From Escherichia coli (GTDB lineage: Bacteria; Pseudomonadota; Gammaproteobacteria; Enterobacterales; Enterobacteriaceae): 51,502 nucleotides of DNA. A program made the position numbers and the translations under genes. Numbering within the stretch: position 1 is the stretch's first letter; each line of letters opens with the position of its first letter. A model generated the notes under the pieces. The model made no database searches and was not told the DNA's origin. It saw only the letters and a program-made list of their open reading frames with translations. The stretch is taken from assembly GCF_048403405.1 (NCBI RefSeq), contig NZ_CP183133.1; one strand, written 5' to 3'. Below, piece after piece: positions 1,633 to 18,720 of the stretch.

Positions 1633-1950
1633 ACGCACGTCGTAGTCCGCATCACTAGCCCAGGCGACGCTTGAAAGAACAACGCCGGTGGTGCTTATCC
1701 CGGCCATGACAAGCGTGCTTACGCCGCGCGTCCGAAGGTCGGCGTCGAGCGCCGTGCCATAAAAGACGCTGGCTCGCGGACATGCATAGAAAAGGTCGCC
1801 CCGTTCGATCGCAAGCCCTTCGACGGGCAGACCGGTGCGAAATCGTCCGCTCGGGAGATACGGTGAGATTTGGCGATTCGTCGCCGGCGGCGCATGTTCA
1901 TACTCTTCGCCGAGCGAAAAGTTGGGGAACAGCACGGGCCGGCCGCGCAA
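1633..1950 (-). pseudogene. Isochorismatase-family hydrolase, internal fragment
   Basis: Translation ...GTALDADLRTRGVSTLVMAGISTTGVVLSSVAWASDADYDV resembles the isochorismatase/cysteine-hydrolase core; runs into IS26 on one side and the tnpA fragment on the other. Confidence 0.4.
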
Positions 1951-1959
1951 GGCGTGCTG

Positions 1960-3690
1960 GCAGCCGTGCAGACCCTGCGTGAGATGAACGCCGACAACCT
2001 GCGCAAGGTGCCGGCCGATGCACCCACGGCCTTCATCAAGCCGCGCTGGAAGCCGCTGGTGATCACCCCGGAAGGCCTCGACCGGAAATTCTACGAAATC
2101 TGCGCCCTGTCCGAGCTGAAGAACGCCCTGCGCTCGGGCGACATCTGGGTCAAGGGCTCGCGGCAGTTCCGCGACTTCGACGACTACCTGCTGCCGGCCG
2201 AGAAGTTCGCCGCACTCAAGCGCGAGCAGGCCCTGCCCCTGGCGATCAACCCGAACAGCGACCAGTACCTGGAAGAGCGTTTGCAGCTGCTGGACGAGCA
2301 GTTGGCCACCGTCACCCGCCTGGCCAAGGACAACGAGCTGCCCGATGCCATCCTCACCGAGTCAGGGCTGAAAATCACCCCGCTGGATGCGGCGGTGCCG
2401 GATCGGGCGCAGGCGCTGATCGACCAAACCAGCCAGTTACTGCCGCGCATCAAGATCACCGAACTGCTGATGGACGTGGACGACTGGACGGGCTTCAGCC
2501 GCCACTTCACCCACTTGAAGGACGGGGCCGAGGCCAAAGACAGGACGTTGCTGCTGTCCGCAATCCTCGGTGATGCGATCAACCTCGGGCTGACCAAGAT
2601 GGCCGAGTCGAGCCCCGGCCTGACCTACGCCAAGCTGTCCTGGCTGCAAGCCTGGCACATCCGCGACGAAACCTATTCGGCGGCCTTGGCCGAGCTGGTC
2701 AACCACCAGTATCGCCACGCCTTTGCCGCCCACTGGGGCGACGGCACGACCTCATCCTCCGATGGCCAGCGCTTCCGCGCGGGTGACCGGGGCGAGAGCA
2801 CCGGGCACGTCAACCCGAAGTACGGTAGCGAGCCGGGACGGCTGTTCTATACCCATATCTCCGACCAGTACGCGCCGTTCAGCACCCGCGTGGTGAATGT
2901 CGGCGTCCGCGATTCCACCTATGTGCTCGACGGCCTGCTGTACCACGAGTCCGACCTGCGGATCGAGGAGCACTACACCGACACGGCCGGCTTCACCGAT
3001 CACGTCTTTGCCCTGATGCACCTGCTAGGCTTCCGCTTCGCGCCGCGCATCCGCGACCTCGGCGAAACCAAGCTGTACGTGCCGCAGGGCGTGCAAGCCT
3101 ACCCGACGTTGCGCCCGCTGATCGGCGGCACCCTGAACATCAAGCACGTGCGTGCCCACTGGGACGACATCCTGCGCCTGGCCAGCTCGATCAAGCAGGG
3201 CACCGTCACCGCCTCGCTGATGCTGCGCAAGCTCGGCAGCTACCCGCGCCAGAACGGACTGGCCGTGGCCCTGCGCGAGCTGGGCCGGATCGAGCGCACG
3301 CTGTTCATCCTGGACTGGCTGCAAAGTGTTGAACTGCGCCGCCGCGTGCATGCCGGCCTGAACAAAGGTGAGGCGCGCAACTCGCTGGCCAGGGCGGTGT
3401 TCTTCAACCGCCTTGGGGAAATCAGGGATCGGAGCTTCGAGCAGCAGCGCTACCGGGCCAGCGGCCTCAACCTGGTGACGGCGGCTATCGTGCTGTGGAA
3501 CACGGTGTACCTGGAACGCGCCACCCAGGGGTTGGTCGAGGCCGGCAAGCCGGTGGACGGCGAGCTGCTGCAATTCCTGTCGCCGCTGGGCTGGGAGCAC
3601 ATCAACCTAACCGGCGATTACGTCTGGCGGCAGAGCCGCAGACTGGAAGACGGGAAGTTTCGGCCCTTACGGATGCCCGGAAAACCTTAG
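1960..3690 (+). pseudogene. tnpA: Tn3-family transposase TnpA, C-terminal ~575 aa (5'-truncated)
   Basis: 606-aa ORF translation (…[38 protein letters not shown]…[23 protein letters not shown]) is typical of the Tn3/Tn21-family TnpA C-terminus; stop at 3688-3690 lies inside the terminal IR. Confidence 0.85.
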
Positions 3691-3723: not shown

Positions 3724-4626
3724 GTGCACGGCAAGTGAACTCCGGCCCCTGGTCAGTTCTTATCGTCGCCGGATAGCCTCGAAACAGTGCAATGCTGTCC
3801 AGAATACGCGAGACCTGAACGCCTGAAATCCCAAAGGCAACAGTGACCGTCAGGCATTCCTTTGTGAAATCATCGACGCAGGTAAGACACTTGATCCTGC
3901 GACCGGTGGAAAGTGCGTCCATGACGAAATCCATCGACCAGGTCAGATTGGGCGCCGCCGGACGGAGCAGCGGCAGACGTTCTGTTGCCAGCCCTTTACG
4001 ACGTCTTCTGCGTTTTACGCCCAGGCCACTGAGGTGATAAAGCCGGTACACGCGCTTATGATTAACATGAAGCCCTTCACGGCGCAGCAACTGCCAGATA
4101 CGACGGTAGCCAAAACGCCTGCGCTCCAGTGCCAGCTCAGTGATGCGCCCTGATAAATGCGCATCAGCAGCCGGACGGTGAGCCTCATAGCGGCAGGTCG
4201 ACAGGGATAAACCTGTAAGCCTGCAGGCACGACGTTGCGACAGACCCTTAGCCTCGCACATGACTTCCACGGCTTCCCGCTTCTGGTCTGTCGTCAGTAC
4301 TTTCGCCCAAGAGCCACCTGAAGCGCCTCTTTATCCAGCATGGCTTCGGCAAGCAGCTTCTTGAGTCTGGCGTTCTCTTCCTCAAGCGACTTCAGACGCT
4401 TAACTTCAGGCACCTCCATACCGCCATACTTCTTACGCCAGGTGTAAACGTGGCATCGGAAATGGCATGCTTGCGGCAGAGTTCACGGGCGGGTACCCCA
4501 GCTTCGGCTTCGCGGAGATATTGATGATCTGTTCGTCGGAAAAACGCTTCTTCATGGGGATGTCCTCATGTGGCTTATGAAGACATTACTAACATCGGGG
4601 TGTACTAATCAACGGGGAGCAGGTCA
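3724..4626 (-). mobile_element. IS3-family (IS407-group-like) element, left part: IRL, orfA with a 1-nt deletion, 5' portion of orfB; cut by the Tn3-family IR
   Basis: orfA-like translation MKKRFSDEQIINILREAEAG...(frameshift near TFYTWRKKY)...; orfB 5' part MEVMCEAKGLSQRRACRLTGL...TDQGPEFTC; terminal TGACCTGCTCCCC read on the minus strand at 4614-4626. Confidence 0.7.
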
Positions 4627-5300: not shown

Positions 5301-6357
5301 GGCTTTGTTGAATAAATCAGATTTCGGGTAAGTCTCCCCCGTAGCGGGTTGTGTTTTCAGGCAATACGCACGCTTTCAGGCATACCTGCTTTCGTCATTT
5401 TGTTCAGCGCTCGTACCAGGGCCATAGCCTCCGCAACCTGACCATCGTAGTCACGCAGCGTCAGTGAACCCCCGAACAGCTGTTTTACCCGGTACATCGC
5501 CGTTTCCGCTATCGAGCGACGGTTGTAATCTGTTGTCCATTTCCACCGCGCATTACTCCCGGTCATTCGCTGATTCGCAACAGCACGGTTACGGTCTGCA
5601 TATTCACCGGGCCAGTAACCCGCGCCTTTTCGGGGTGGGATAAGCGCGCTGATTTTCTTACGCCGCAGTTCATCGTGACAGAGCCGGGTGTCGTAAGCGC
5701 CGTCTGCCGATGCTGCCCTGATTTTTCTGTGAGTCTGCCGGATAAGACCCGGGAAGGCTTCTGAGTCCGTCACATTGTTCAGCGACAGGTCTGCACAGAT
5801 GATTTCATGTGTGTTGCTGTCAACTGCCAGATGCAGCTTACGCCAGATACGGCGGCGTTCCTGACCATGCTTTTTGACTTTCCACTCGCCTTCACCGAAG
5901 ACCTTCAGCCCGGTGGAATCAATTACCAGGTGTGCGATTTCACCCCGGGTGGGCGTTTTGAAACTGATATTAACCGACTTTGCCCGCCTGCTGACACAGC
6001 TGTAATCCGGGCAGCGTAGCGGAACGTTCATCAGAGAAAAAATGGAATCAATAAAGCCCTGCGCAGCGCGCAGGGTCAGCCTGAATACGCGTTTAATGAC
6101 CAGCACAGTCGTGATGGCAAGGTCAGAATAGCGCTGAGGTCTGCCTCGTGAAGAAGGTGTTGCTGACTCATACCAGGCCTGAATAGCTTCATCATCCAGC
6201 CAGAAAGTTATGGAGCCACGGTTGATGAGGGCTTTATTGTAGGTGGGCCAGTTGGTTATTTTGAACTTTTGCTTTGCCACGGAACGGTCTGCGTTGTCGG
6301 GAAGATGCGTGATCTGATCCTTCAACTCAGCAAAAGTTCGATTTATTCAACAAAGCC
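5301..6357 (-). mobile_element. IS903 (IS5 family), copy 1, 1057 bp
   Basis: 18-bp terminal IRs GGCTTTGTTGAATAAATC at 5301-5318 and inverted at 6340-6357; flanking 9-mers differ. Confidence 0.9.
5357..6280 (-). CDS. tnpA: IS903 transposase (307 aa, GTG start inside the 322-aa ORF)
   Basis: ORF translation ...[43 protein letters not shown]... matches IS903 transposase as I recall it. Confidence 0.85.
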   Translation of the reverse strand: MAKQKFKITNWPTYNKALINRGSITFWLDDEAIQAWYESATPSSRGRPQRYSDLAITTVLVIKRVFRLTLRAAQGFIDSIFSLMNVPLRCPDYSCVSRRAKSVNISFKTPTRGEIAHLVIDSTGLKVFGEGEWKVKKHGQERRRIWRKLHLAVDSNTHEIICADLSLNNVTDSEAFPGLIRQTHRKIRAASADGAYDTRLCHDELRRKKISALIPPRKGAGYWPGEYADRNRAVANQRMTGSNARWKWTTDYNRRSIAETAMYRVKQLFGGSLTLRDYDGQVAEAMALVRALNKMTKAGMPESVRIA

Positions 6358-6660: not shown

Positions 6661-6847
6661 TGATGGTCATGCTTGCATGACCATCTGAGCAACCAAAAAC
6701 TACAGATAAACTACAGATAAACTACAAAAAACGTTTTGCCTTAGTGTTGTAAGACTACAAATAGACTACAATAAAACTACAAATAAACTACAAAAAACGT
6801 GACAGACTACAAATAGACTACAATAAAACTACAGATAAACTACAAAA
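6661..6847. repeat. Regulatory repeat region: perfect palindrome GATGGTCATGC/GCATGACCATC (6661-6684) plus about 11 direct 11-bp units ACTACA(A/G)ATA(A/G)A in three clusters (6697-6847)
   Basis: Seen directly; AT-rich, immediately upstream of the HTH gene at 6906. Confidence 0.7.
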
Positions 6848-6905
6848 CTCGATTGACCCCTTCTTACGAGTGTTGTAGAGTCATTTTCATACAACGGAGG
6901 GGGTT

Positions 6906-7292
6906 ATGAATAAACCAGCAGATCTGAAACCCCGCAACTTATCGGCTGCTGTCAGATTGCGCCTAAATGAAATCGAGAACTGGCTGGACAGAGGGCTAAC
7001 GCGGCATGAAATTGCTGAAATCCTCGACAGCGAATACAGCTTTTCGGTAACAGCCAAAGGGCTTGAGATGGCACTGTATAGAACGCGGCAAAACCGAAAA
7101 AATGTATTGCACAATACGCATGATAAGAGTAGCGCGAAGGGTGCAGCGGAAAGTGTATTGCACAATACACAACCGTCTGAGCCTGAAGTGCAGGAAAGTA
7201 AAAAAGCAGAGAGTCCCGGCATTATTGATAAAGAATTCTTCAAGAAAATCGGTGAGAATTTCGACCCTAAGAAGTTCAACAAAAAATTCTGA
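6906..7292 (+). CDS. Small putative HTH DNA-binding protein (128 aa), function unknown
   Basis: RBS GGAGGGGG before ATG 6906; segment LTRHEIAEIL is HTH-like; coding sequence contains two copies of the near-palindrome GTATTGCACAATAC (7094-7107, 7155-7168). Confidence 0.55.
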   Translation: MNKPADLKPRNLSAAVRLRLNEIENWLDRGLTRHEIAEILDSEYSFSVTAKGLEMALYRTRQNRKNVLHNTHDKSSAKGAAESVLHNTQPSEPEVQESKKAESPGIIDKEFFKKIGENFDPKKFNKKF

Positions 7293-7300
7293 GGTGATTT

Positions 7301-7376
7301 ATGAAAGTAGCGGTAATTAATTACAGTGGCAGTGTTCGTAAAACCTTAATTTCATCTTACCTGTTAGCCCCGCGCG
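7301..7376 (+). pseudogene. ORF start (MKVAVINYSGSVRKTLISSYLLAPR) truncated by IS903 copy 2
   Basis: ATG 9 bp after the stop of the HTH gene; reading frame runs into the IS903 IR at 7377. Confidence 0.3.
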
Positions 7377-8432
7377 GCTTTGTTGAATAAATCAGATTTC
7401 GGGTAAGTCTCCCCCGTAGCGGGTTGTGTTTTCAGGCAATACGCACGCTTTCAGGCATACCTGCTTTCGTCATTTTGTTCAGCGCTCGTACCAGGGCCAT
7501 AGCCTCTGCAACCTGACCATCGTAGTCACGCAGTGTCAGTGAACCTCCGAACAGCTGTTTTACCCGGTACATCGCCGTTTCCGCTATCGAGCGACGGTTG
7601 TAATCTGTTGTCCATTTCCACCGCGCATTACTCCCGGTCAGCCGCTGATTCGCAACAGCACGGTTACGGTCTGCATATTCACCGGGCCAGTAACCCGCGC
7701 CTTTTCGGGGTGGGATAAGCGCGCTGATTTTCTTACGCCGCAGTTCATCGTGACAGAGCCGGGTGTCGTAAGCGCCGTCTGCCGATGCTGCCCTGATTTT
7801 TCTGTGAGTCTGCCGGATAAGACCCGGGAAGGCTTCTGAGTCCGTCACATTGTTCAGCGACAGGTTTGCACAGATGATTTCATGTGTGTTGCTGTCAACT
7901 GCCAGATGCAACTTTCGCCATATACGACGGCGTTCCTGGCCATGCTTTTTGACTTTCCATTCGCCTTCACCAAAGACCTTCAGCCCGGTGGAATCAATCA
8001 CCAGATGCGCGATTTCACCCCGGGTGAACGTTTTGAAACTGACATTAACCGACTTTGCGCGCTTGCTGACACTGGTGTAATCCGGGCAGCGCAACGGAAC
8101 ATTCATCAGTGTAAAAATGGAATCAATAAAACCCTGTGCAGCCCGCAGGGTCAACCTGAACACGCGTTTAATGACCAGAACGGTGGTGATGGCGAGATCA
8201 GAATAGCGCTGAGGTCTTCCCCGTGATGAAGGCGTTGCCGACTCATACCAGGCCTGAATAGCTTCATCATCCAGCCAGAAAGTTATGGAGCCACGGTTGA
8301 TGAGGGCTTTATTGTAGGTGGGCCAGTTGGTTATTTTGAACTTTTGCTTTGCCACGGAACGGTCTGCGTTGTCGGGAAGATGCGTGATCTGATCCTTCAA
8401 CTCAGCAAAAGTTCGATTTATTCAACAAAGCC
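7377..8432 (-). mobile_element. IS903, copy 2
   Basis: IRs GGCTTTGTTGAATAAATC at 7377-7394 and inverted at 8415-8432; about 98% identical to copy 1 by eye; no 9-bp target duplication. Confidence 0.9.
7432..8355 (-). CDS. tnpA: IS903 transposase
   Basis: 322-aa ORF nearly identical to copy 1. Confidence 0.85.
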   Translation of the reverse strand: MAKQKFKITNWPTYNKALINRGSITFWLDDEAIQAWYESATPSSRGRPQRYSDLAITTVLVIKRVFRLTLRAAQGFIDSIFTLMNVPLRCPDYTSVSKRAKSVNVSFKTFTRGEIAHLVIDSTGLKVFGEGEWKVKKHGQERRRIWRKLHLAVDSNTHEIICANLSLNNVTDSEAFPGLIRQTHRKIRAASADGAYDTRLCHDELRRKKISALIPPRKGAGYWPGEYADRNRAVANQRLTGSNARWKWTTDYNRRSIAETAMYRVKQLFGGSLTLRDYDGQVAEAMALVRALNKMTKAGMPESVRIA

Positions 8433-8512
8433 GTCTGTGTTGTAAAATGGCGCCGAAAGCCCGGCGTAGCCGGTTGCCGGGCTATAAATTCTGCCACCCT
8501 ACCCCCTGCCCT
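8433..8512 (-). other. Conserved structured element, copy C (5' half only; cut by IS903 copy 2)
   Basis: Reverse complement CAGGGCAGGGGGTAGGGTGGCAGAATTTATAGCCCGGCAACCGGCTACGCCGGGCTTTCGGCGCCATTTTACAACACAGACGG aligns with the 5' half of copy B (45065-45140). Confidence 0.35.
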
Positions 8513-8920
8513 GATTAGCCTTAACTCGCGAACAGCAATGAAGAAGTCAAAGTAATCCCTTTTAACCCCGGTGAGCGGGCTTTACGGCGTTTACGACGTA
8601 AAGGGCGTGATTTCCGGGGCCTAAGCGGCGGCAGCTTGCTGCTGACGCTTAGGGGGATGTTCATCAACTATTTCAGCGACACCAGGGAACTTAACACGGT
8701 AGCTGCAAAGCCCTAATCCCGCTCACCGCCACGCAGCTGCCGTACGTCCCCCACGGGGGTGCGCAGTGCTGCGCGCGGGAACGGCGGCCCGTCTGCGGGA
8801 CGCGGCGCCGTACTGCGCGTTAGCGGCCGCACGCGGCCGGTTACGGGGGACACTCCGCCATACGACCAGCGACCCGCTGAGCTGCACAATCCACAGATAA
8901 CACAAGCTACATACATGTCG

Positions 8921-9716
8921 ATATGGGAATCGGCCCACCTTGCCGGGCGCCGGTGCCGTGTGGAAATCCGCCCACCTTGCCGCGCGCCGGTGCCGTGTGG
9001 GAATCCGCCCACCTTGCCGGGCGCCGGTGCTGTGTGGAAATCCGCCCACCTTGCCGCGCGCCGGTGCCGTGTGGGAATCCGCCCACCTTGCCGCGCGCCG
9101 GTGCCGTGTGGGAATCCGCCCACCTTGCCGGGCGCCGGTGCTGTGTGGAAATCCGCCCACCTTACCGGGCGCCGGTGCTGTGTGGAAATCCGCCCATCTT
9201 GCCGGGCGCCGGTGCCGTGTGGGAATCCGCCCACCTTGCCGGGCGCCGGTGCTGTGTGGAAATCCGCCCACCTTACCGGGCGCCGGTGCTGTGTGGAAAT
9301 CCGCCCATCTTGCCGGGCGCCGGTGCCGTGTGGGAATCCGCCCACCTTACCGGGCGCCGGTGCCGTGTGGGAATCCGCCCACCTTACCGGGCGCCGGTGC
9401 CGTGTGGGAATCCGCCCACCTTACCGGGCGCCGGTGCTGTGTGGAAATCCGCCCATCTTGCCGGGCGCCGGTGCCGTGTGGGAATCCGCCCACCTTGCCG
9501 GGCGCCGGTGCTGTGTGGAAATCCGCCCACCTTACCGGGCGCCGGTGCTGTGTGGAAATCCGCCCATCTTGCCGGGCGCCGGTGCCGTGTGGGAATCCGC
9601 CCACCTTACCGGGCGCCGGTGCCGTGTGGGAATCCGCCCACCTTACCGGGCGCCGGTGCCGTGTGGGAATCCGCCCACCTTACCGGGCGCCGGTGCTGTG
9701 TGGAAATCCGCCCATC
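8921..9716. repeat. Tandem array, about 21 copies of a 37-bp GC-rich unit (TGTGGGAATCCGCCCACCTTGCCGGGCGCCGGTGCCG); iteron-like, downstream of the truncated rep gene
   Basis: Motif CCCACCTT recurs at 8934, 8971, 9008, 9045 (period 37); units are contiguous with no spacers; variant positions alternate (G/C, C/T, G/A). Confidence 0.85.
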
Positions 9717-9765
9717 TTCATGACAAAAATTTGTCAAATGACAGGCTCATGTGTGCTGATTTATG

Positions 9766-10068
9766 TCAGACGGGATTTTGCTTATCAATTATTGAGAACA
9801 GAAATTTTCCTGAATCATCAATACTATACTTAGCAAGTAAAGGTGTTTTCTCATTTATCTGCTTGAGAGCAGGATCAAGGAAAGATCGTTTCAACTCTGC
9901 CAAGTTCTTCTGTTGGGATTCCGGCAAAAGGAAACGGTCATTTAACCAAGCATGAGTAGTAACCCATAAGCCTGAAGATTTGAATTGAGCAAGACTTTCA
10001 TAAAGGCGGATCGTCCGGGGATTTCGAAGACTGCCACAATCGCGGAGCGAGTAGGTGGTGAACTGGTT
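9766..10068 (-). pseudogene. Rep_3-family replication initiator, C-terminal fragment (5' end removed by IS1)
   Basis: Minus-strand translation ...LYESLAQFKSSGLWVTTHAWLNDRFLLPESQQKNLAELKRSFLDPALKQINEKTPLLAKYSIDDSGKFLFSIIDKQNPV* parallels the RepB C-terminus (RLYESLCQFRSTGVWITTHDWL...). Confidence 0.6.
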
Positions 10069-10083
10069 GGTAATGACTCCAAC

Positions 10084-10587
10084 TTACTGATAGTGTTTTA
10101 TGTTCAGATAATGCCCGATGACTTTGTCATGCAGCGCCACCGATTTTGAGAACGACAGTGACTTCCTGCCCAGCCTTGCCAGATGCTGCCTCAGATTCTG
10201 GTTATGCCGCTCAATTCGCTGCGTATATCGCTTGCTGATAACGTGCAGTTCTCCCTTCAGGCGGGATTCATAAAGCGGCCAGCCATCCGTCATCCATACC
10301 ACGACCTCAAAGGCCGACAGCAGGCCCGGAAGACGCTCCAGCGTGGCCAGAGTACGCTCACCAAAGACGCGTGCCACCACCGTCCTGCACATCCTGCCAT
10401 AGGCGTAAAATAACCAGCGCTGACGTGATTTAGCCCCGACGTAGCCCCACTGTTCGTCCATTTCCGCGCAGACAATGACGTCACTGCCCGGTTGTATGCG
10501 TGAGGTTACCGACTGCGGTCTGAGTTTTTTAAGTGACGTAAAATCGTGTTGAGGCCAACGCCCATAATGCGGGCGGTTGCCCGGCAT
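10084..10587 (-). CDS. insB: IS1 InsB
   Basis: ORF translation [64 protein letters not shown]... Confidence 0.9.
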
Positions 10588-10781
10588 CCAACGCCATTCA
10601 TGGCCATATCAATGATTTTCTGGTGCGTACCGGGCTGAGAGGCGGTGTAAGTGAACTGTAGCTGCCATGTTTTACGGCAGTGAGAGCAGAGATAGCGCTG
10701 ATGTCCGGCAGTACTTTTACCGTTACGCACCACGCCTTCAGTAGCTGAGCAGGAGGGACAACTGATGGAGATGGAAGCCAC
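10506..10781 (-). CDS. insA: IS1 InsA
   Basis: ORF translation [46 protein letters not shown]... Confidence 0.9.
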
Positions 10782-10864
10782 TGGAGCACCTCAAAGACAC
10801 CATCGTACACTAAATCAGTAAGTTGGCACCATTATCCGGCAGGCGATCTGGATTATCGTCACGC

Positions 10865-12785
10865 TGTTAAATATGTCGCGGTAGGGATACCCGTTACCGG
10901 ATACCCCCCGCACAGATCCCGGCGTGCGCGATTTACGCACCGGGCTCCTGCCTCGGGTGTCTGGCGGTGAACCGCTCCACAGGCCATGGATGAAGAACCC
11001 GAACCCTTGGTAGCCATGCGGCTGCCAGTTTGTTTGCTTTCGTCCAGGTCGTATCATCCTTCTGGCTCCTGCGCCTGAGCGCCCGGCGCCAGAGGTTTGT
11101 TACGTGTGTCCTGAACTTCTGCATGGTGGGGAAGTTGCCCGGTACCGAGTGATAGTTCAGGTATCCCTGAACCACTCTCCTGAGCCATTTTCCCTGTTCG
11201 GGGATTGAGTAATGCCAGCGCCTTCGCAGACCGTCTTTGATGGCTTTCAGAGTTGCCGTCATCCGATCCCGGCGGGTCTTTCGTATCAGCATGAACCTGC
11301 CGTTGCGATCTTTCCCGCTGATGTGCGTGAACCCGAGGAAGTTGAACGTTTCTGGTTTGCCTTTTCCCCTGATGGCACGGTTTTCGGCAGCGAAGCGGCC
11401 GAACTCCATCAGACGGGTTTTCTCCGGGTGAACCGTGAGTCCGAACTCCCTCAGTCTGCGCTGCATGGCTATACGGAAGCGCCGGGCATCGTATCGTTTG
11501 TCGAACCCGATGACGATGTCATCGGCGTATCTGACCATTACCACATTGCCTGTGGCATAGCGACGTCGCCACTGATGCGCCCACAGATCGAAGACGTAGT
11601 GGAGGTATATGTTTGCCAGCAGCGGTGAGATGACCGCACCCTGTGGGGTGCCTTCCTCCGTTGCTCGCCATTGACCCTCCTCCAACGTCCCGGCTGTGAG
11701 CCACTTACGTATGAGCCTGATTACGCTCCGGTCGCCGATCCGATGCTCTGTGAACCTGATCAGCCATTCGTGGCTCACCCTGTCGAAGAACTGACTGATG
11801 TCGGCATCCAGTACCCAGTTTACGTTAGTGCGTACCAGCCCTGTGGCCAGTGCGTCCAGTGCATCGTGCTGGCTTCGCCCGGGTCTGAACCCGTATGAGA
11901 ACCCCATAAAGTCGTTTTCATAGACTGCGTTCAGGATTTTCACCAGCGCATACTGGACGATCTTGTCCTCCAGCGAGGCGATGCCGAGCGGGCGTTGTTT
12001 TCCATCCGCTTTTGGGATGTAGTGACGCCTGCCGGGCTGCGCCCTGTAGCTGCCCTGATGTAGCCTCCGGTGCAGATCTGTTATGTTGTTCTTCATGTTT
12101 CCGGCGTAGTCCATCCACCTGATGCCATCCACTCCGGCGGCCGCTTTCCTGCTCAGGGAGAGGAATGCGGCTTCCAGTGCTTCGACTGTCAGCAGGTGGA
12201 ACAATGCTGTAAACCGTTCTTTCTTCCGCTGCTTCGCAGCTTCCCGCACGCGTGACAGCCTCTGTGACATGCTTTCCCGGCTCTGTGTCCGGCGCATGTG
12301 TGGCTGTTCCGCGTTCCCCTTGGCCCCGCTCCTTCGCTCCACTGACTCCGCTCCTTTCGGGTTGTTCGCCTGCTTCGCCGCTACTATGAGCGAGTCCGAC
12401 TTCTCCTCTCCGTACATCACCGGCTATGACTCCTCGTCTTCCCGGTGCGGGCCGTCTCCGACACTGGCAGATGGTCAGAGGGGAGATCTCCCGGTTCCCG
12501 CGTAGAGATCGTATTGACATGCCAGGGTCTCAGACCCCGCCGGGTCCATGTGGCACTCGCAGTATCGCACCCTATGATGTTGCCTTCCGTTAACAGTACA
12601 ACGTCGGCACCCGGTAATTTAATATACATTTCGTGGCTCAATGGCTGGCCTGTCAACACCCCTGTCAACGCTTCGCCCCATACCTCGCGGTATGCAACGC
12701 ATGACTCGGGGACCTTGTGGATTGCTGGTCCTTCAATGGTCGGGGACTTTCACCCCTTGATCTCTACCGGTCTCCCGGCGAACAC
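10865..12785 (-). mobile_element. Group II intron (approximate boundaries) carrying an RT/maturase ORF
   Basis: Domain-V-like hairpin GAGCCCGGTGCGTAAATCGCGCACGCCGGGATC (minus strand, plus coords 10915-10947) overlaps the RT stop; about 490 nt of structured sequence lies 5' of the RT start; exact 5'/3' ends not resolved by eye. Confidence 0.5.
10933..12297 (-). CDS. Group II intron reverse transcriptase/maturase
   Basis: ORF translation has RT motifs (…KADGKQRPLGIASLEDKIVQ…GTPQGAVISPLLANIYLH…VRYADDIVIGF…) and a maturase-like C-terminus; start placed at MRRTQSRE (the ORF track extends to 12420). Confidence 0.8.
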   Translation of the reverse strand: MRRTQSRESMSQRLSRVREAAKQRKKERFTALFHLLTVEALEAAFLSLSRKAAAGVDGIRWMDYAGNMKNNITDLHRRLHQGSYRAQPGRRHYIPKADGKQRPLGIASLEDKIVQYALVKILNAVYENDFMGFSYGFRPGRSQHDALDALATGLVRTNVNWVLDADISQFFDRVSHEWLIRFTEHRIGDRSVIRLIRKWLTAGTLEEGQWRATEEGTPQGAVISPLLANIYLHYVFDLWAHQWRRRYATGNVVMVRYADDIVIGFDKRYDARRFRIAMQRRLREFGLTVHPEKTRLMEFGRFAAENRAIRGKGKPETFNFLGFTHISGKDRNGRFMLIRKTRRDRMTATLKAIKDGLRRRWHYSIPEQGKWLRRVVQGYLNYHSVPGNFPTMQKFRTHVTNLWRRALRRRSQKDDTTWTKANKLAAAWLPRVRVLHPWPVERFTARHPRQEPGA

Positions 12786-14609: not shown

Positions 14610-15587
14610 TTATTGACTCAAATTTCTGTCAAGGACTTCGTTGATAGCCTTGTCCAGTTCATCCTGAATCACTTTTGACATACGGCTAAACTCATAAGTC
14701 AGCGTGCGCCCTTTCACACGCTTACGCGCGAACTTGTCCTTTTCTTCAAAAGACCAGAGTGGGGAAACCACTGACTTTTCCTTGGGAGATGGATCTATCA
14801 ATGCCTGAGATGCCTGAGAAATCAGCTTCAGAATACTGGCTTTCTGTTCGTCTTCTGGTCGCTCGCCATCACTCAAAATTGCATCGAGCTGAGCTGATAC
14901 AGACTGAATGAGTTCTTCAGGCGTTAATCCCTTTTCACCGAGTTTTTCATTAACTTCTAAAAGAAGTTTATAATCACTAAACGATAGCTCCGACTGAACC
15001 GGGAACAGAGAAATTAAGTCTTGCGGTACGGCCGCCGCCTGCAGCGCCCTGGTAACTTTAGCCTGAGATAATCCCTCCAGTTCAGCAATTTCCTTTTGAT
15101 TAAATCCGGACTCTTTAAGAGCGATCAATCTCAGACCAATCTCCCGAAGATTATGTTCTTTAGCTGTCTGGATATCTTTAGCCAGTTGGCGAGCTTCATC
15201 AGCTGATAAATGTTCTTCGGTAACCATTACATCAAGGCCTGTACGGACAAAAATTGCTGAGGCTCGCCGTCTTGAACCATCCAGTATCTCAATCCTTTCA
15301 CTTTGCTTAATACCAATACAGGGAAAGAACTGCTGAAACTTAATCGTCTGGATAATGGATTTCAGAGACTCCCTGGTCAGTGCAAGTTGATCTCTTCCAT
15401 TGTTTTCCTGGTTTACGAAGGTCTTACTTTCAACTTCAGATGCAGGCACCCGAACAAACCTGAACGTTACCTTCCTGCCGGTTTTTAAGGTAAATACCTG
15501 ACTTCTACCGGTGTCAGCCATTTCGAGCATTGACGCCTGAGTATTTAACTGTCTGCCGATGGTTTTTCTTTTCTCATTCGACATCAC
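14610..15587 (-). CDS. parB: ParB (P1 ParB-like centromere-binding protein)
   Basis: 325-aa ORF strongly resembles P1 ParB as I recall it (…IEILDGSRRRASAI…KEGLSQAKVTRALQAA…FARKRVKGR…). Confidence 0.9.
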   Translation of the reverse strand: MMSNEKRKTIGRQLNTQASMLEMADTGRSQVFTLKTGRKVTFRFVRVPASEVESKTFVNQENNGRDQLALTRESLKSIIQTIKFQQFFPCIGIKQSERIEILDGSRRRASAIFVRTGLDVMVTEEHLSADEARQLAKDIQTAKEHNLREIGLRLIALKESGFNQKEIAELEGLSQAKVTRALQAAAVPQDLISLFPVQSELSFSDYKLLLEVNEKLGEKGLTPEELIQSVSAQLDAILSDGERPEDEQKASILKLISQASQALIDPSPKEKSVVSPLWSFEEKDKFARKRVKGRTLTYEFSRMSKVIQDELDKAINEVLDRNLSQ

Positions 15588-16789
15588 ATACCTCCGTTAG
15601 TACGAATGAACTCGATGCGATCAAAGACTGCCTTCGCAAAGTCTTCCGCTGCTGATTTTGCGCTTTTTAGTGCCTCTGTACTTCCATCATAGGTTGCTGG
15701 ATTTGCTGAAATAACTGTGTCAAAAGTCTCCCCACAACGTTCGAAACCATCCAGTCTTGGCAGAACCATGTCTAGCATATCGGCACCGAAAACCTCTTTG
15801 GCCTGACTATGGCAAATTTTGTGATCAGACTTGTTCAGGATCTTGGACATGAAGCCGACATTACCGATGAGATTGCAGGTGTGCCCATCCATTTCGATGG
15901 AATCTATGAGGGCAGGGAGGCTGGCCACAAACTTCAGGGAAGAATGAAAATCAACCGTCGCCGGTGGAAGAGGGGTCAACATCAGGTCTGCCGCCCCAAT
16001 GCAGTTTTTCAGGAACGCATCAAGGTGAGGACCACTATCAAGGAAAATAAAGTCGTAGTCATGCTGGAGCTTGTCGATAATGTTCTCTTTAAGCACCGCA
16101 TGAATATTTTTCCCTGGCAGATGTTCTTCACACAATCCCTTCCAGCCTTCAGCAAGGAATGCATCGTCAATGGAAGCGGGGATTACATCAACACCAGGGA
16201 TAATAGACGGTACTATAAAATCGGAAAGTAATTCTTCACGAGACACGTTCTGGAGCATGGCCTGAGCAGCCGTATTTTCAACCAAGCCCACTGAATTCTC
16301 ATGGCTCAGGAACATTGTCAGAGATGCCTGCGGATCGAAATCGATGGCCAGAATACGCAGGTCTTCGAACAGAAGCTGAGGATGAGCTCGAAAAGCATGT
16401 GATAATGAAGCGGTAGAAACTGTCTTGGAACCACCACCTTTAAGATTACATACAAAAATCGTAAAGGCTTTATCGAAGCGATCCCTGTACTTCGGTACTT
16501 TACGATGGTTATACAGATCGATGACATTCTGAATCGTCATCGCGTATTTCATCGTATTACCAGAAGGTTTCTTTTTAAAAATGTAGCCACCGGCTTCCAT
16601 TTCGGACACAGCATACTCAACACTGCCTTTACTGAGCTTAGGCAGCTTATACAGAGCGGCTTTGCTGTATTCCTGATAGAACTCGGTAAGCTTCAATTCC
16701 TCTTTTTGCTGTCGGATACTTTCGCTCAAAGATGTCAGAAGCTTACCTGCACGTGTAGCGACTTTCCGTAACTGCTCAATATTGTCCAT
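15584..16789 (-). CDS. parA: ParA (type Ia partition ATPase with N-terminal HTH extension)
   Basis: 401-aa ORF with deviant Walker A NLKGGGSKT; 4-bp overlap with parB. Confidence 0.9.
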   Translation of the reverse strand: MDNIEQLRKVATRAGKLLTSLSESIRQQKEELKLTEFYQEYSKAALYKLPKLSKGSVEYAVSEMEAGGYIFKKKPSGNTMKYAMTIQNVIDLYNHRKVPKYRDRFDKAFTIFVCNLKGGGSKTVSTASLSHAFRAHPQLLFEDLRILAIDFDPQASLTMFLSHENSVGLVENTAAQAMLQNVSREELLSDFIVPSIIPGVDVIPASIDDAFLAEGWKGLCEEHLPGKNIHAVLKENIIDKLQHDYDFIFLDSGPHLDAFLKNCIGAADLMLTPLPPATVDFHSSLKFVASLPALIDSIEMDGHTCNLIGNVGFMSKILNKSDHKICHSQAKEVFGADMLDMVLPRLDGFERCGETFDTVISANPATYDGSTEALKSAKSAAEDFAKAVFDRIEFIRTNGGM

Positions 16790-17182
16790 TTATCACCTCA
16801 TGACGTTTTTTGTCATTTTGAACAAAAAGTGTCATGTTGCAAGAAAAAAATCATATTGTTTTGATTTCGCTCTCAACAGAAGGGGGATGAAGCTCGACGG
16901 GCGTGCTACTAAATCACACTGCAGCAACACGCAGACGCACTTTTGACCATCAACAGCAACTCATACAAAAGGGCTTTGAGAAAGGTATTCAACTTGCAAG
17001 ACAGGAGAGTCATTCAGAAGGATTCTGATTTTAGTTACGACCAGTGCAATGCTGAGCCTTATGTATCAGCGCTCGCCGCAGCCATGTAACCGAGCGTAGC
17101 GAGCGAACTGGCGAGGAAGCGAAGAGGAACCGTTCCGGCAGATAGCTCTTACGCTCAGCACAAGAAGAGTTTTCCATCCTCT

Positions 17183-17590
17183 GTGGGAAACAGGTCAACT
17201 TTAATGGACGCTCCGGACTATGGGAAACAGGTCAACTTCGCGGACGGCCCGGACTATGGGAAACAGGTCAACTTCACGGGCGGCCGGGAGTGTGGGGAAC
17301 AGGTCAACTTCGCGGACGGCCCGGATTATGGGAAACAGGTCAACTTCGCGGGCGGCCGGGACTGTGGGAAACAGGTCAACTTTGCAGACGGCCCGGACTG
17401 TGGGAAACAGGTCAACTTCGCGGGCGGCCGGGAGTGTGGGGAACAGGTCAACTTCGCGGACGGCCCGGACTAAGGGAAACAGGTCAGCTTCTCGGACGGC
17501 CCGGACTATGGGAAACAGGTCAACTTCTCGGACGGTCGGGAGTGTGGGAAACAGGTCAAGTTAGGCAAGCACTATGGGAAACACAGCAAG
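17183..17590. repeat. Iteron array downstream of repB: about 11 units of about 36 bp with core TGTGGGAAACAGGTCAACTT
   Basis: Core GGGAAACAGGTCAAC recurs at 17185, 17222, 17258, … (period 36-37). Confidence 0.8.
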
Positions 17591-17649
17591 TTCAGTATCC
17601 CCCCATATGTCAGCAACAAACTAAGGGGGGAGGAAATAAAAATTACAGA

Positions 17650-18372
17650 CTATTGTTTTTTATCAAGAAAATTAAACAGCAAGCGACCATCTTCTTCAGT
17701 GGTATATGTTACCTTTAATGGCGTCTTCTCATTAATTTTCTTCAGAGCAGGTTCCAGGAAGGTACGCTTCATTTCAGCAATATTGTTTTTCTGCGAGGCA
17801 GGGAGCATAAACCTTTCACATAACCAGTCATGTGTGGTGATCCAGACACCAGTGCTCCGGAACTGACACAGGCTTTCATAAAGCCGGATGACACGAACAC
17901 TATTAAGCTGGCCACAGTCATAGAGAGAATAGGTAGTGAACTGGGAGGTTAAGCCGACCAGGAATGGCATGACCTTGTAGTTAAATTCAATCTGCCAGGA
18001 ACCCCGGCCTCGCTTCATTCCTGCTTCAGCCAGCCACGGACGTTTAACTTCTTCAAACTCACCTTCTTTTGGATAAAAGGTAACCGTTGATTCGCCCAGA
18101 GCATTTACCCCAGCCTTCACATCACGACTGGCGACAGACGTAGCGACATTGAAGTATTTGACGTAATCGGAAACGCTGATTTTGAAGAGCGGCAATACGT
18201 CAGAGTCATCTTCCTGGCTGTCATTAAAATAGGCCTGCATGAGGCATAACCACAGCACACGTTTTGCCTGAAGAGGCAGGTAATATGCAGCTTCGGTCAA
18301 TTCGTTAGATTGCTTTATACTGGCGCGTTTTTTAAACGTTTTAGTAGCTGGCAAGAGTGCTTGAGTATCCAT
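17650..18372 (-). CDS. repB: Replication initiator RepB (Rep_3 / RepE-like)
   Basis: Translation from MDTQALLPATKTFKKRASIKQSNELTEAAYYLPLQAKRVLWLCL…RLYESLCQFRS… parallels F RepE; start set at the inner ATG (18372) because the upstream in-frame ATG (18516) lies inside operator repeats. Confidence 0.8.
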   Translation of the reverse strand: MDTQALLPATKTFKKRASIKQSNELTEAAYYLPLQAKRVLWLCLMQAYFNDSQEDDSDVLPLFKISVSDYVKYFNVATSVASRDVKAGVNALGESTVTFYPKEGEFEEVKRPWLAEAGMKRGRGSWQIEFNYKVMPFLVGLTSQFTTYSLYDCGQLNSVRVIRLYESLCQFRSTGVWITTHDWLCERFMLPASQKNNIAEMKRTFLEPALKKINEKTPLKVTYTTEEDGRLLFNFLDKKQ

Positions 18373-18720
18373 TTCAATGCCTATGGGTAAATTTTTACCC
18401 ACCCATAATGACAGTGAAAACAGAAATTGCAAGCTATCGCGATACTTATCCACCGGAAAAATCTGCACTTTATCCACAAGTGGATAATTGAGAACTGAAC
18501 TTGACCTCTTTCCCATAGCTTGTTGATGCGTATCCCATAGCTTGTTGACACAAAACCCACTGATACGTGATTAATTTCCCATATTATGTTTACCAGTTGC
18601 CCATACAGGCCCCCTCTCAGGCCGCACTGTACGCGGCTTTCAGGCTCCCTAAAAGATGTAAAATAAAGAAAAAGAATAAAAAAGTACTTTATAAAAATAT
18701 GCCCGTGGATAAGTGGATAA
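18373..18720. promoter_or_regulatory. repB operator / putative oriV
   Basis: Inverted DnaA boxes TTATCCACAAGTGGATAA (18470-18487); two 16-bp direct repeats TCCCATAGCTTGTTGA (18501-18540); AT-rich tract 18640-18700; tandem DnaA boxes GTGGATAAGTGGATAA (18705-18720). Confidence 0.55.

Follow-up and report, generated by a model that had tools for sequence, protein, structure and literature searches.

The window analyzed here is a 51,502-nucleotide stretch of Escherichia coli DNA (contig NZ_CP183133.1 of assembly GCF_048403405.1). Between positions 7376 and 10837 it contains a tandem repeat array and the 3' end of a replication initiator gene, bounded by two insertion sequences. The features of this region are as follows.

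7376 to 8432, minus strand: IS903B, which bounds "region N" on the left in its published form (IS5-family transposase match and 18-bp terminal repeats)
8433 to 8723, no strand assigned: unrelated fragment of ~290 bp of an IncFII(K)-type Klebsiella plasmid (95% identity to pBK32179)
8703 to 8920, minus strand: sequence that in IncN1 plasmids lies beyond Iterons I, on the side away from repA (match to pZH063_2)
8921 to 9718, minus strand: IncN1 "Iterons I" array, 21 full 37-bp units and one partial unit
9719 to 9765, minus strand: spacer of 47 bp that separates the array from the repA stop codon (part of a 372-bp, 99% match to IncN-typed records L003, L004, and L005)
9766 to 10068, minus strand: IncN1 repA remnant, codons 138 to 239 and the stop codon (tblastn, Pfam, and NCBIfam)
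10069 to 10837, minus strand: IS1X3, which truncates repA (IS1 transposase match, public annotation, and end sequences)

The 37-bp repeat array

The initial annotation had described some 21 tandem copies of a G+C-rich 37-bp unit at this locus, and this description was correct. Tandem Repeats Finder reported the array as one call at 8924 to 9718 (21.5 copies, 93% matches, 0% indels, score 1331), and its G+C content is 71%, compared to 54% across the whole window. Read in register from position 8921, the array consists of 21 full units, followed by an incomplete one of 21 bp, which ends at 9718. Each unit contains a 20-bp core, TGTGG(G/A)AATCCGCCCA(C/T)CTT, and a 17-bp G+C-rich spacer, and the consensus of the array is TGGGAATCCGCCCACCTTGCCGGGCGCCGGTGCCGTG.

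Sequence typing of the units gave the order A B C B D C E F C E F G G H F C E F G G H F' in the window and A B C B D C E F C E F G G H F' in the IncR record L001, which carries a widespread IncR allele of 14.5 copies. The 21.5-copy allele of the window therefore differs from the common allele of 14.5 copies by a single exact duplication of seven units (259 bp), and the array matches itself exactly over 310 bp at an offset of 259. The copy numbers met for the 37-bp array were 6.7, 14.5, 21.5, 39.5, and 47.5.

The additional 259-bp block could be the product of either a recent unequal crossover or an assembly artefact. It seems rather unlikely that the copy number of 21.5 (as opposed to the array itself) arose by misassembly of this ~800-bp repeat. 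Over the query used, each of the best 30 PLSDB records is 259 bp shorter than the window, consistent with an allele of 14.5 copies, as confirmed by unit typing in L001 alone out of these 30; the extra block is an exact duplicate, as a misresolved repeat would look; and L004, a noisy record, has 47.5 copies with indels. However, unequal crossing-over likewise yields exact block duplications, published arrays span 5 to 31 copies, and the array of the window contains neither indels nor degenerate units. Far less probable still, to the point of being negligible, is that the array encodes a repetitive protein. Several long ORFs of up to 398 amino acids run across the G+C-rich array on both strands (window positions 8713 to 9955), and at least one public record (CP043753.1) has a hypothetical protein annotated within it. 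Open frames on both strands are nevertheless expected at 71% G+C, most records annotate nothing there, and the same array is noncoding 3' of repA in IncN plasmids. The period of 37 is also not divisible by 3, and we therefore rejected these ORFs (e.g., 8759 to 9955, 398 amino acids) as spurious.

The truncated repA gene and the boundaries of the fragment

By tblastn, the gene remnant corresponds to residues 138 to 239 of the 239-amino-acid IncN RepA, with 99% identity over 103 positions. It encodes the end of the Rep3_N (WH1) domain and the Rep3_C (WH2) domain (Pfam) and matches positions 144 to 229 of the 251-position RepE profile (NCBIfam). The first 137 codons, including nearly all of WH1, are missing. 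We found neither a usable start codon nor a promoter for the remnant, and on its strand the ORF list holds no ORF of at least 60 amino acids there. A word-based protein search with the 101-amino-acid remnant returned fragments only, and the intact IncN repA was reached via the partial protein P0027.

The array had been placed 3' of an IS1-truncated Rep_3-family gene at 9766 to 10068; such a gene does lie there, 47 bp from the array and cut at 10069. This gene had further been called a paralogue of the repB gene of the window. The truncation is real, but the remnant is not a local paralogue: its identity to repA of IncN plasmids is 99%, whereas that to RepB is only 57%, indicating that the 9766 to 10068 sequence is an imported piece of an IncN1 repA. 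The only Rep_3 matches in the window are RepB and this remnant.

The remnant stops at the inverted repeat of IS1X3, which starts at 10069. The element is not flanked by a 9-bp target duplication (gaactggtt on the left, window positions 10060 to 10078, versus ggcaggcga on the right, 10828 to 10846), indicating that the repA/IS1X3 junction was formed by an IS1-mediated deletion or by rearrangement or recombination rather than by simple insertion. The insB frame of the element and the repA remnant share a reading frame, in which the TAA stop codon of insB alone separates them, and one database protein (P0004) from a variant carries the annotation of an InsB-RepA fusion.

On the other side of the array, window positions 8703 to 8930 are 91.7% identical to positions 2190 to 2429 of the conjugative IncN plasmid pZH063_2, which directly follow its array; the IncN-derived piece thus covers window positions 8703 to 10068. 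The IncFII(K)-type fragment is wedged between this piece and IS903B, and in pBK32179 its counterpart lies past the 3' end of the IncFII repA gene. Approximately 20 bp (8703 to 8723) match both the IncFII(K) and the IncN sources and may mark a recombination point.

Relationship to the IncN1 replicon

The array was compared with those of IncN-typed PLSDB records, used in place of R46 (AY046276). The repA tail, the spacer, and the first unit of the window form the 372-bp match (99% identity) to L003, L004 (p30COLEC-2), and L005 (pZH063_2). In IncN records, an intact repA gene of 239 codons is followed by the same 47-bp spacer and then by the same array: in p30COLEC-2, repA occupies positions 1 to 720 and an array of 47.5 copies starts at 768, and in pZH063_2 the array has 39.5 copies. 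L003 carries 6.7 copies behind a repA gene cut by IS26. In these records the array lies behind repA, and the consensus of the window array is identical to the consensus of L003 and L005 as a rotated reverse complement. The L004 consensus differs from it at one position, the polymorphic GGG/GGA of the core, which also varies in intact IncN arrays. The window array thus agrees with IncN1 Iterons I in its 37-bp period, its unit sequence, and its position directly 3' of IncN repA. None of the unit types of the window equals the unit that predominates in pZH063_2, and of these types C alone was met again in the IncN arrays used for comparison. Together with the 91.7% identity of the far flank, this suggests that the donor belonged to a different IncN1 lineage or that the relic has drifted.

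The origin of pZH063_2, read across the joined end and start of the circular record, comprises a DnaA-like box, ~100 bp of A+T-rich sequence, and five 20-bp cores at the canonical 22-bp spacing, all upstream of repA. These origin iterons are in the orientation opposite to that of the downstream 37-bp array. The direct repeats of the array are in constant phase, and their core differs from the five origin repeats of the intact IncN1 replicon by 1 to 4 mismatches, so that array and origin have a core in common, as iterons should. Nothing comparable to this origin accompanies the IncN piece of the window. The IncN-type core was not found elsewhere in the window, no DnaA box was found at 8430 to 10070, and the piece contains neither an A+T-rich stretch nor 22-bp iterons. 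It therefore has neither the intact repA gene nor the upstream origin of a functional IncN1 replicon, and the description of the array as orphaned from its initiator held in full. We also considered the fragment as a dormant origin that might be activated by RepA in trans, which is unlikely given that it is devoid of the DnaA box, the A+T-rich stretch, and the 22-bp iterons.

On these grounds, window positions 8703 to 10068 are very probably a dead fragment of an IncN1 replicon, joined to an IncR backbone via IS1X3 and IS903B and corresponding to the published region N.

The IncR backbone and its probable replication origin

The sequence at ~10.9 to 21 kb is a standard IncR backbone with a near-perfect match in IncR-typed plasmids. 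It comprises a group II intron, umuDC, parAB, 36-bp iterons, repB, and a tyrosine recombinase gene. The features referred to below are as follows.

10933 to 12420, minus strand: group II intron reverse transcriptase/maturase (retA/ltrA of IncR descriptions)
12525 to 12750, minus strand: group-II-D1D4-6 intron RNA (Rfam)
17181 to 17595, minus strand: IncR iteron array, 11 cores of TRTGGGAAACAGGTCAACTT at a 36-bp spacing and one degenerate core nearer repB
17650 to 18372, minus strand: repB, the intact IncR initiator gene (annotated as 17650 to 18516 in public records)
18446 to 18725, minus strand: probable IncR origin, with DnaA boxes, an A+T-rich stretch, and iteron-like repeats

Tandem Repeats Finder reported the IncR array at 17184 to 17559 with a period of 36 and 10.4 copies; the first spacing is 37 bp and the others are 36 bp. 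The intact repB gene had been placed at 17650 to 18372 with the 36-bp array 3' of it, and both the arrangement and the start codon find support here. The start given in public annotation, 18516, lies within the fifth origin repeat, which makes the ATG at 18372 the more plausible start. From there, RepB has 240 amino acids, compared to 239 in RepA. The probable origin begins with DnaA boxes and an A+T-rich stretch at ~18640 to 18725, followed by five iteron-like repeats in 22-bp phase (18626 to 18496), paired DnaA boxes at 18446 to 18487 (the pair at 18470 to 18487 is palindromic), and then repB. As judged from the sequences, the binding element in both families would thus be an ordinary iteron of ~20 bp, and the 36- and 37-bp arrays would represent a second, downstream block of such elements with G+C-rich padding.

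Other parts of the window were also inspected. Two 19-bp TGTCATGTTGCAACAAAAAG-like repeats at 16811 to 16848, just upstream of parA (15584 to 16789, minus strand), may be the par operator or centromere. Most of the searched stretch at 22 to 46 kb matches cargo of large Klebsiella plasmids, e.g., fec and ABC transporter genes. Between the IS903B copies at 5301 to 6357 and 7376 to 8432, the segment at 6697 to 7375 contains a complete stbA gene (6906 to 7292; NCBIfam StbA_2, 123 of 123 profile positions). Ahead of this gene lie two clusters of AAACTACAGAT-like 11-bp direct repeats (6697 to 6726 and 6754 to 6846), and behind it lies the start of stbB, which is cut by IS903B. The region matches stbA-stbB of ~50-kb plasmids with 85 to 91% identity, and stbA with its putative binding repeats resembles a second orphan module acting in cis. 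An IS1222-type ribosomal frameshift element (4210 to 4327, minus strand; Rfam) next to a truncated Tn3-family transposase gene (1870 to 3690) represents ordinary IS3-family content.

Homology between the two arrays

The 20-bp cores of the two arrays had been aligned with agreement at about 15 of 20 positions, and this count proved exact; the common positions include the TGTGGGAA half and the CTT end. At the remaining five positions (9, 11, 13, 14, and 17), each array is nearly uniform and the two arrays differ from one another, and we infer from this pattern that they determine initiator specificity. An alignment of the units of both arrays had been proposed as a check. When it was performed with the consensus units, they aligned, and only 9 of 2,000 shuffles gave a better alignment. 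The gene tail, the spacer, and the array are colinear between the two loci (60% identity over 788 bp, E = 4e-44), and IncN RepA and IncR RepB are 57% identical. The 37-bp units are not members of the IncR array, from which they are set apart by the five fixed core differences and by the period; they are homologous to it all the same. The IncR origin repeats differ from the IncR array core by 2 to 10 mismatches and from the IncN-type core by 8 to 11 mismatches.

Distribution and previous descriptions

The block is already known from IncR plasmids. According to PMC9412624, a region N consisting of IS903B, IS1X3, an IncN repA remnant, and 37-bp iterons lies upstream of retA; IS903B of this region is described there, the region in pST1023 has 24.3 iteron copies, and a highly similar region N occurs in 74 IncR sequences. 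The same arrangement is found in PMC11047700. The IncN Iterons I arrays have been described with 5 to 31 copies (PMC6288184, PMC9769515, and PMC6052338) and the 36-bp iterons of IncR plasmids with 10.5 to 22.5 copies (PMC7707992), or from 10.4 copies upward when PMC9412624 is included. The view in the initial annotation that a 36- to 37-bp period and this copy number are unusual for iterons is thus contradicted by the literature, in which both are a hallmark of the IncN and IncR families. Both the block and the repeat periods have been published, and the array is not a new kind of iteron.

The junction-specific flank was present at a coverage of at least 80% in 760 PLSDB records, and it was found in 196 of 5,426 complete E. 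coli genomes. IS26-truncated ΔrepA-Iterons I pieces with 5 to 31 repeats have been published for IncHI2 and F33 plasmids. NZ_CP138404.1, examined as a possible carrier of both an IncR and an intact IncN replicon, turned out to be an IncX1 plasmid with an IS26-truncated repA and represents another independent capture. The wide distribution and the repeated independent captures could mean that the block is selected rather than neutral.

Discussion

The fragment comprises the 3' third of repA together with the whole downstream Iterons I array of putative RepA-binding cores. In an intact IncN1 replicon, the features for initiation lie upstream of repA and the 37-bp array downstream of it in inverted orientation. 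There, the array probably serves as a copy-number and incompatibility locus that acts through binding of the initiator and pairing with the origin iterons. This role, that of a dispensable control locus, is assigned from secondary citations and the analogy with P1 incA. PMC9412624 cites Papp & Iyer (1995) for the binding of RepA to the 37-bp IncN iterons, and secondary sources ascribe to the IncN iteron regions a part in the control of replication and copy number, with reference to Krishnan & Iyer (1990) and Papp & Iyer (1995). The fragment in the window presumably cannot initiate replication because most of repA, its start codon and promoter, the origin iterons, the A+T-rich stretch, and the DnaA box are missing. 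Lacking an origin, a promoter, and WH1, it would give no replication, and the resident plasmid would replicate from repB with its own origin and iterons. The sole activity left to the array would be the binding, in trans, of an initiator supplied from elsewhere. The cognate ligand is likely to be IncN RepA. An IncN1 plasmid entering the cell would meet 21 to 22 additional RepA sites, which could depress its copy number or make it unstable, and the array may thus exert trans-incompatibility toward IncN1 plasmids. On the resident plasmid, the block is probably a neutral passenger, the copy number of which drifts by unequal recombination.

Two other roles can be envisaged for the array, one directed at the resident replicon and the other at incoming plasmids. 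In addition to the 36-bp array, it could act on the IncR replicon as a sink for RepB or as a pairing partner, thereby lowering the copy number or causing IncR incompatibility. The 15 of 20 core positions common to both arrays and the 57% identity of the initiators would allow this, and RepB, if it binds the IncR origin repeats at all, must tolerate much variation, since these repeats are 2 to 10 mismatches off their own core. However, the five core positions that are fixed in each array behave as specificity determinants would, 8 to 11 mismatches separate the IncR origin repeats from the IncN-type core, IncR and IncN are typed as separate groups, and plasmids with both IncR and a full IncN1 replicon exist (PMC6353027). 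The block is, moreover, counted as accessory in descriptions of the IncR backbone. We therefore consider an action of the array on the IncR replicon very unlikely. Titration of RepB, which had been put forward initially, is possible but disfavored by the five fixed family-specific positions, and weak cross-binding of RepB that fine-tunes the IncR copy number is a weaker alternative. The other role would be a selected one, in which orphan IncN arrays are retained since they soak up IncN RepA and, by incompatibility in trans, keep IncN plasmids out. The very wide spread of the same junction is consistent with selection, as is the fact that IncR, IncHI2, IncF, and IncX1 plasmids have independently acquired repA-iteron fragments behind IS1 and IS26, and cloned iteron arrays such as P1 incA, F incB/incC, and those of R6K exert incompatibility. 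Hitchhiking on successful IncR backbones and IS-mediated resolution of cointegrates would nevertheless explain the spread equally well, and the wide range of copy numbers gives no sign of an optimum; that selection maintains the arrays is thus improbable. We favor the neutral passenger, a remnant of IncN1 replication control that may still bind IncN RepA when this is present.

As a published remnant carried by ~1% of sequenced enterobacterial plasmids, the block matters little for discovery. It does matter for annotation: it can lead to false calls of an "IncN" replicon, it invites spurious annotations as "hypothetical protein" and as "replication initiation protein", and its repeat number is an unstable marker beyond the resolution of short reads. 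There has been little experimental work on IncR replication, and the P1-like layout common to IncR and IncN1 may help its dissection. If the orphan array does exclude IncN plasmids, it would offer a simple, testable case of plasmid-plasmid interference.

A known counterpart of such an arrangement is incA of P1, where the order is origin iterons, repA, and incA. It contains nine RepA iterons downstream of repA, is dispensable for initiation, sets the copy number, and causes incompatibility when cloned. The IncN1 array resembles incA in being a block of initiator-binding repeats that follows the rep gene and stands apart from the origin iterons. The two differ in that the initiator families are unrelated in sequence and the P1 repeats are 19 bp long and irregularly spaced; the role of incA was tested experimentally in P1, whereas that of the IncN array is assigned by analogy. 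The IncR iterons (pK245 and pHN84KPC) belong to a homologous layout of five 22-bp origin iterons, rep, and an inverted downstream array. Their period is 36 instead of 37, their spacer is unrelated to the IncN-type spacer except for its G+C richness, and their initiator is encoded in cis, unlike that of the IncN-type array of the window.

The pieces ΔrepA-Iterons I-gshB and ΔrepA-Iterons I-CUP6-resP of IncHI2, F33:A-:B-, and IncX1 plasmids likewise combine a truncated IncN repA with 37-bp repeats as a passenger. In those, IS26 cuts near the 5' end of repA and ~215 of the 239 codons are kept, whereas in the window IS1X3 removes 137 codons. Compared to an intact IncN1 replicon, the window has a truncated initiator gene and is devoid of the upstream origin. 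The closest relatives are Iterons I of the IncN1 plasmids pCU1, R46, and pKM101 and region N of the IncR plasmid pST1023, with which the window has in common the 37-bp consensus, the 47-bp spacer, and the 3' end of repA (99%). The neighboring IS1X3 and IS903B of the published region N are likewise present, and the window has 21.5 copies, compared to 24.3 for pST1023 and 14.5 for the allele of L001.
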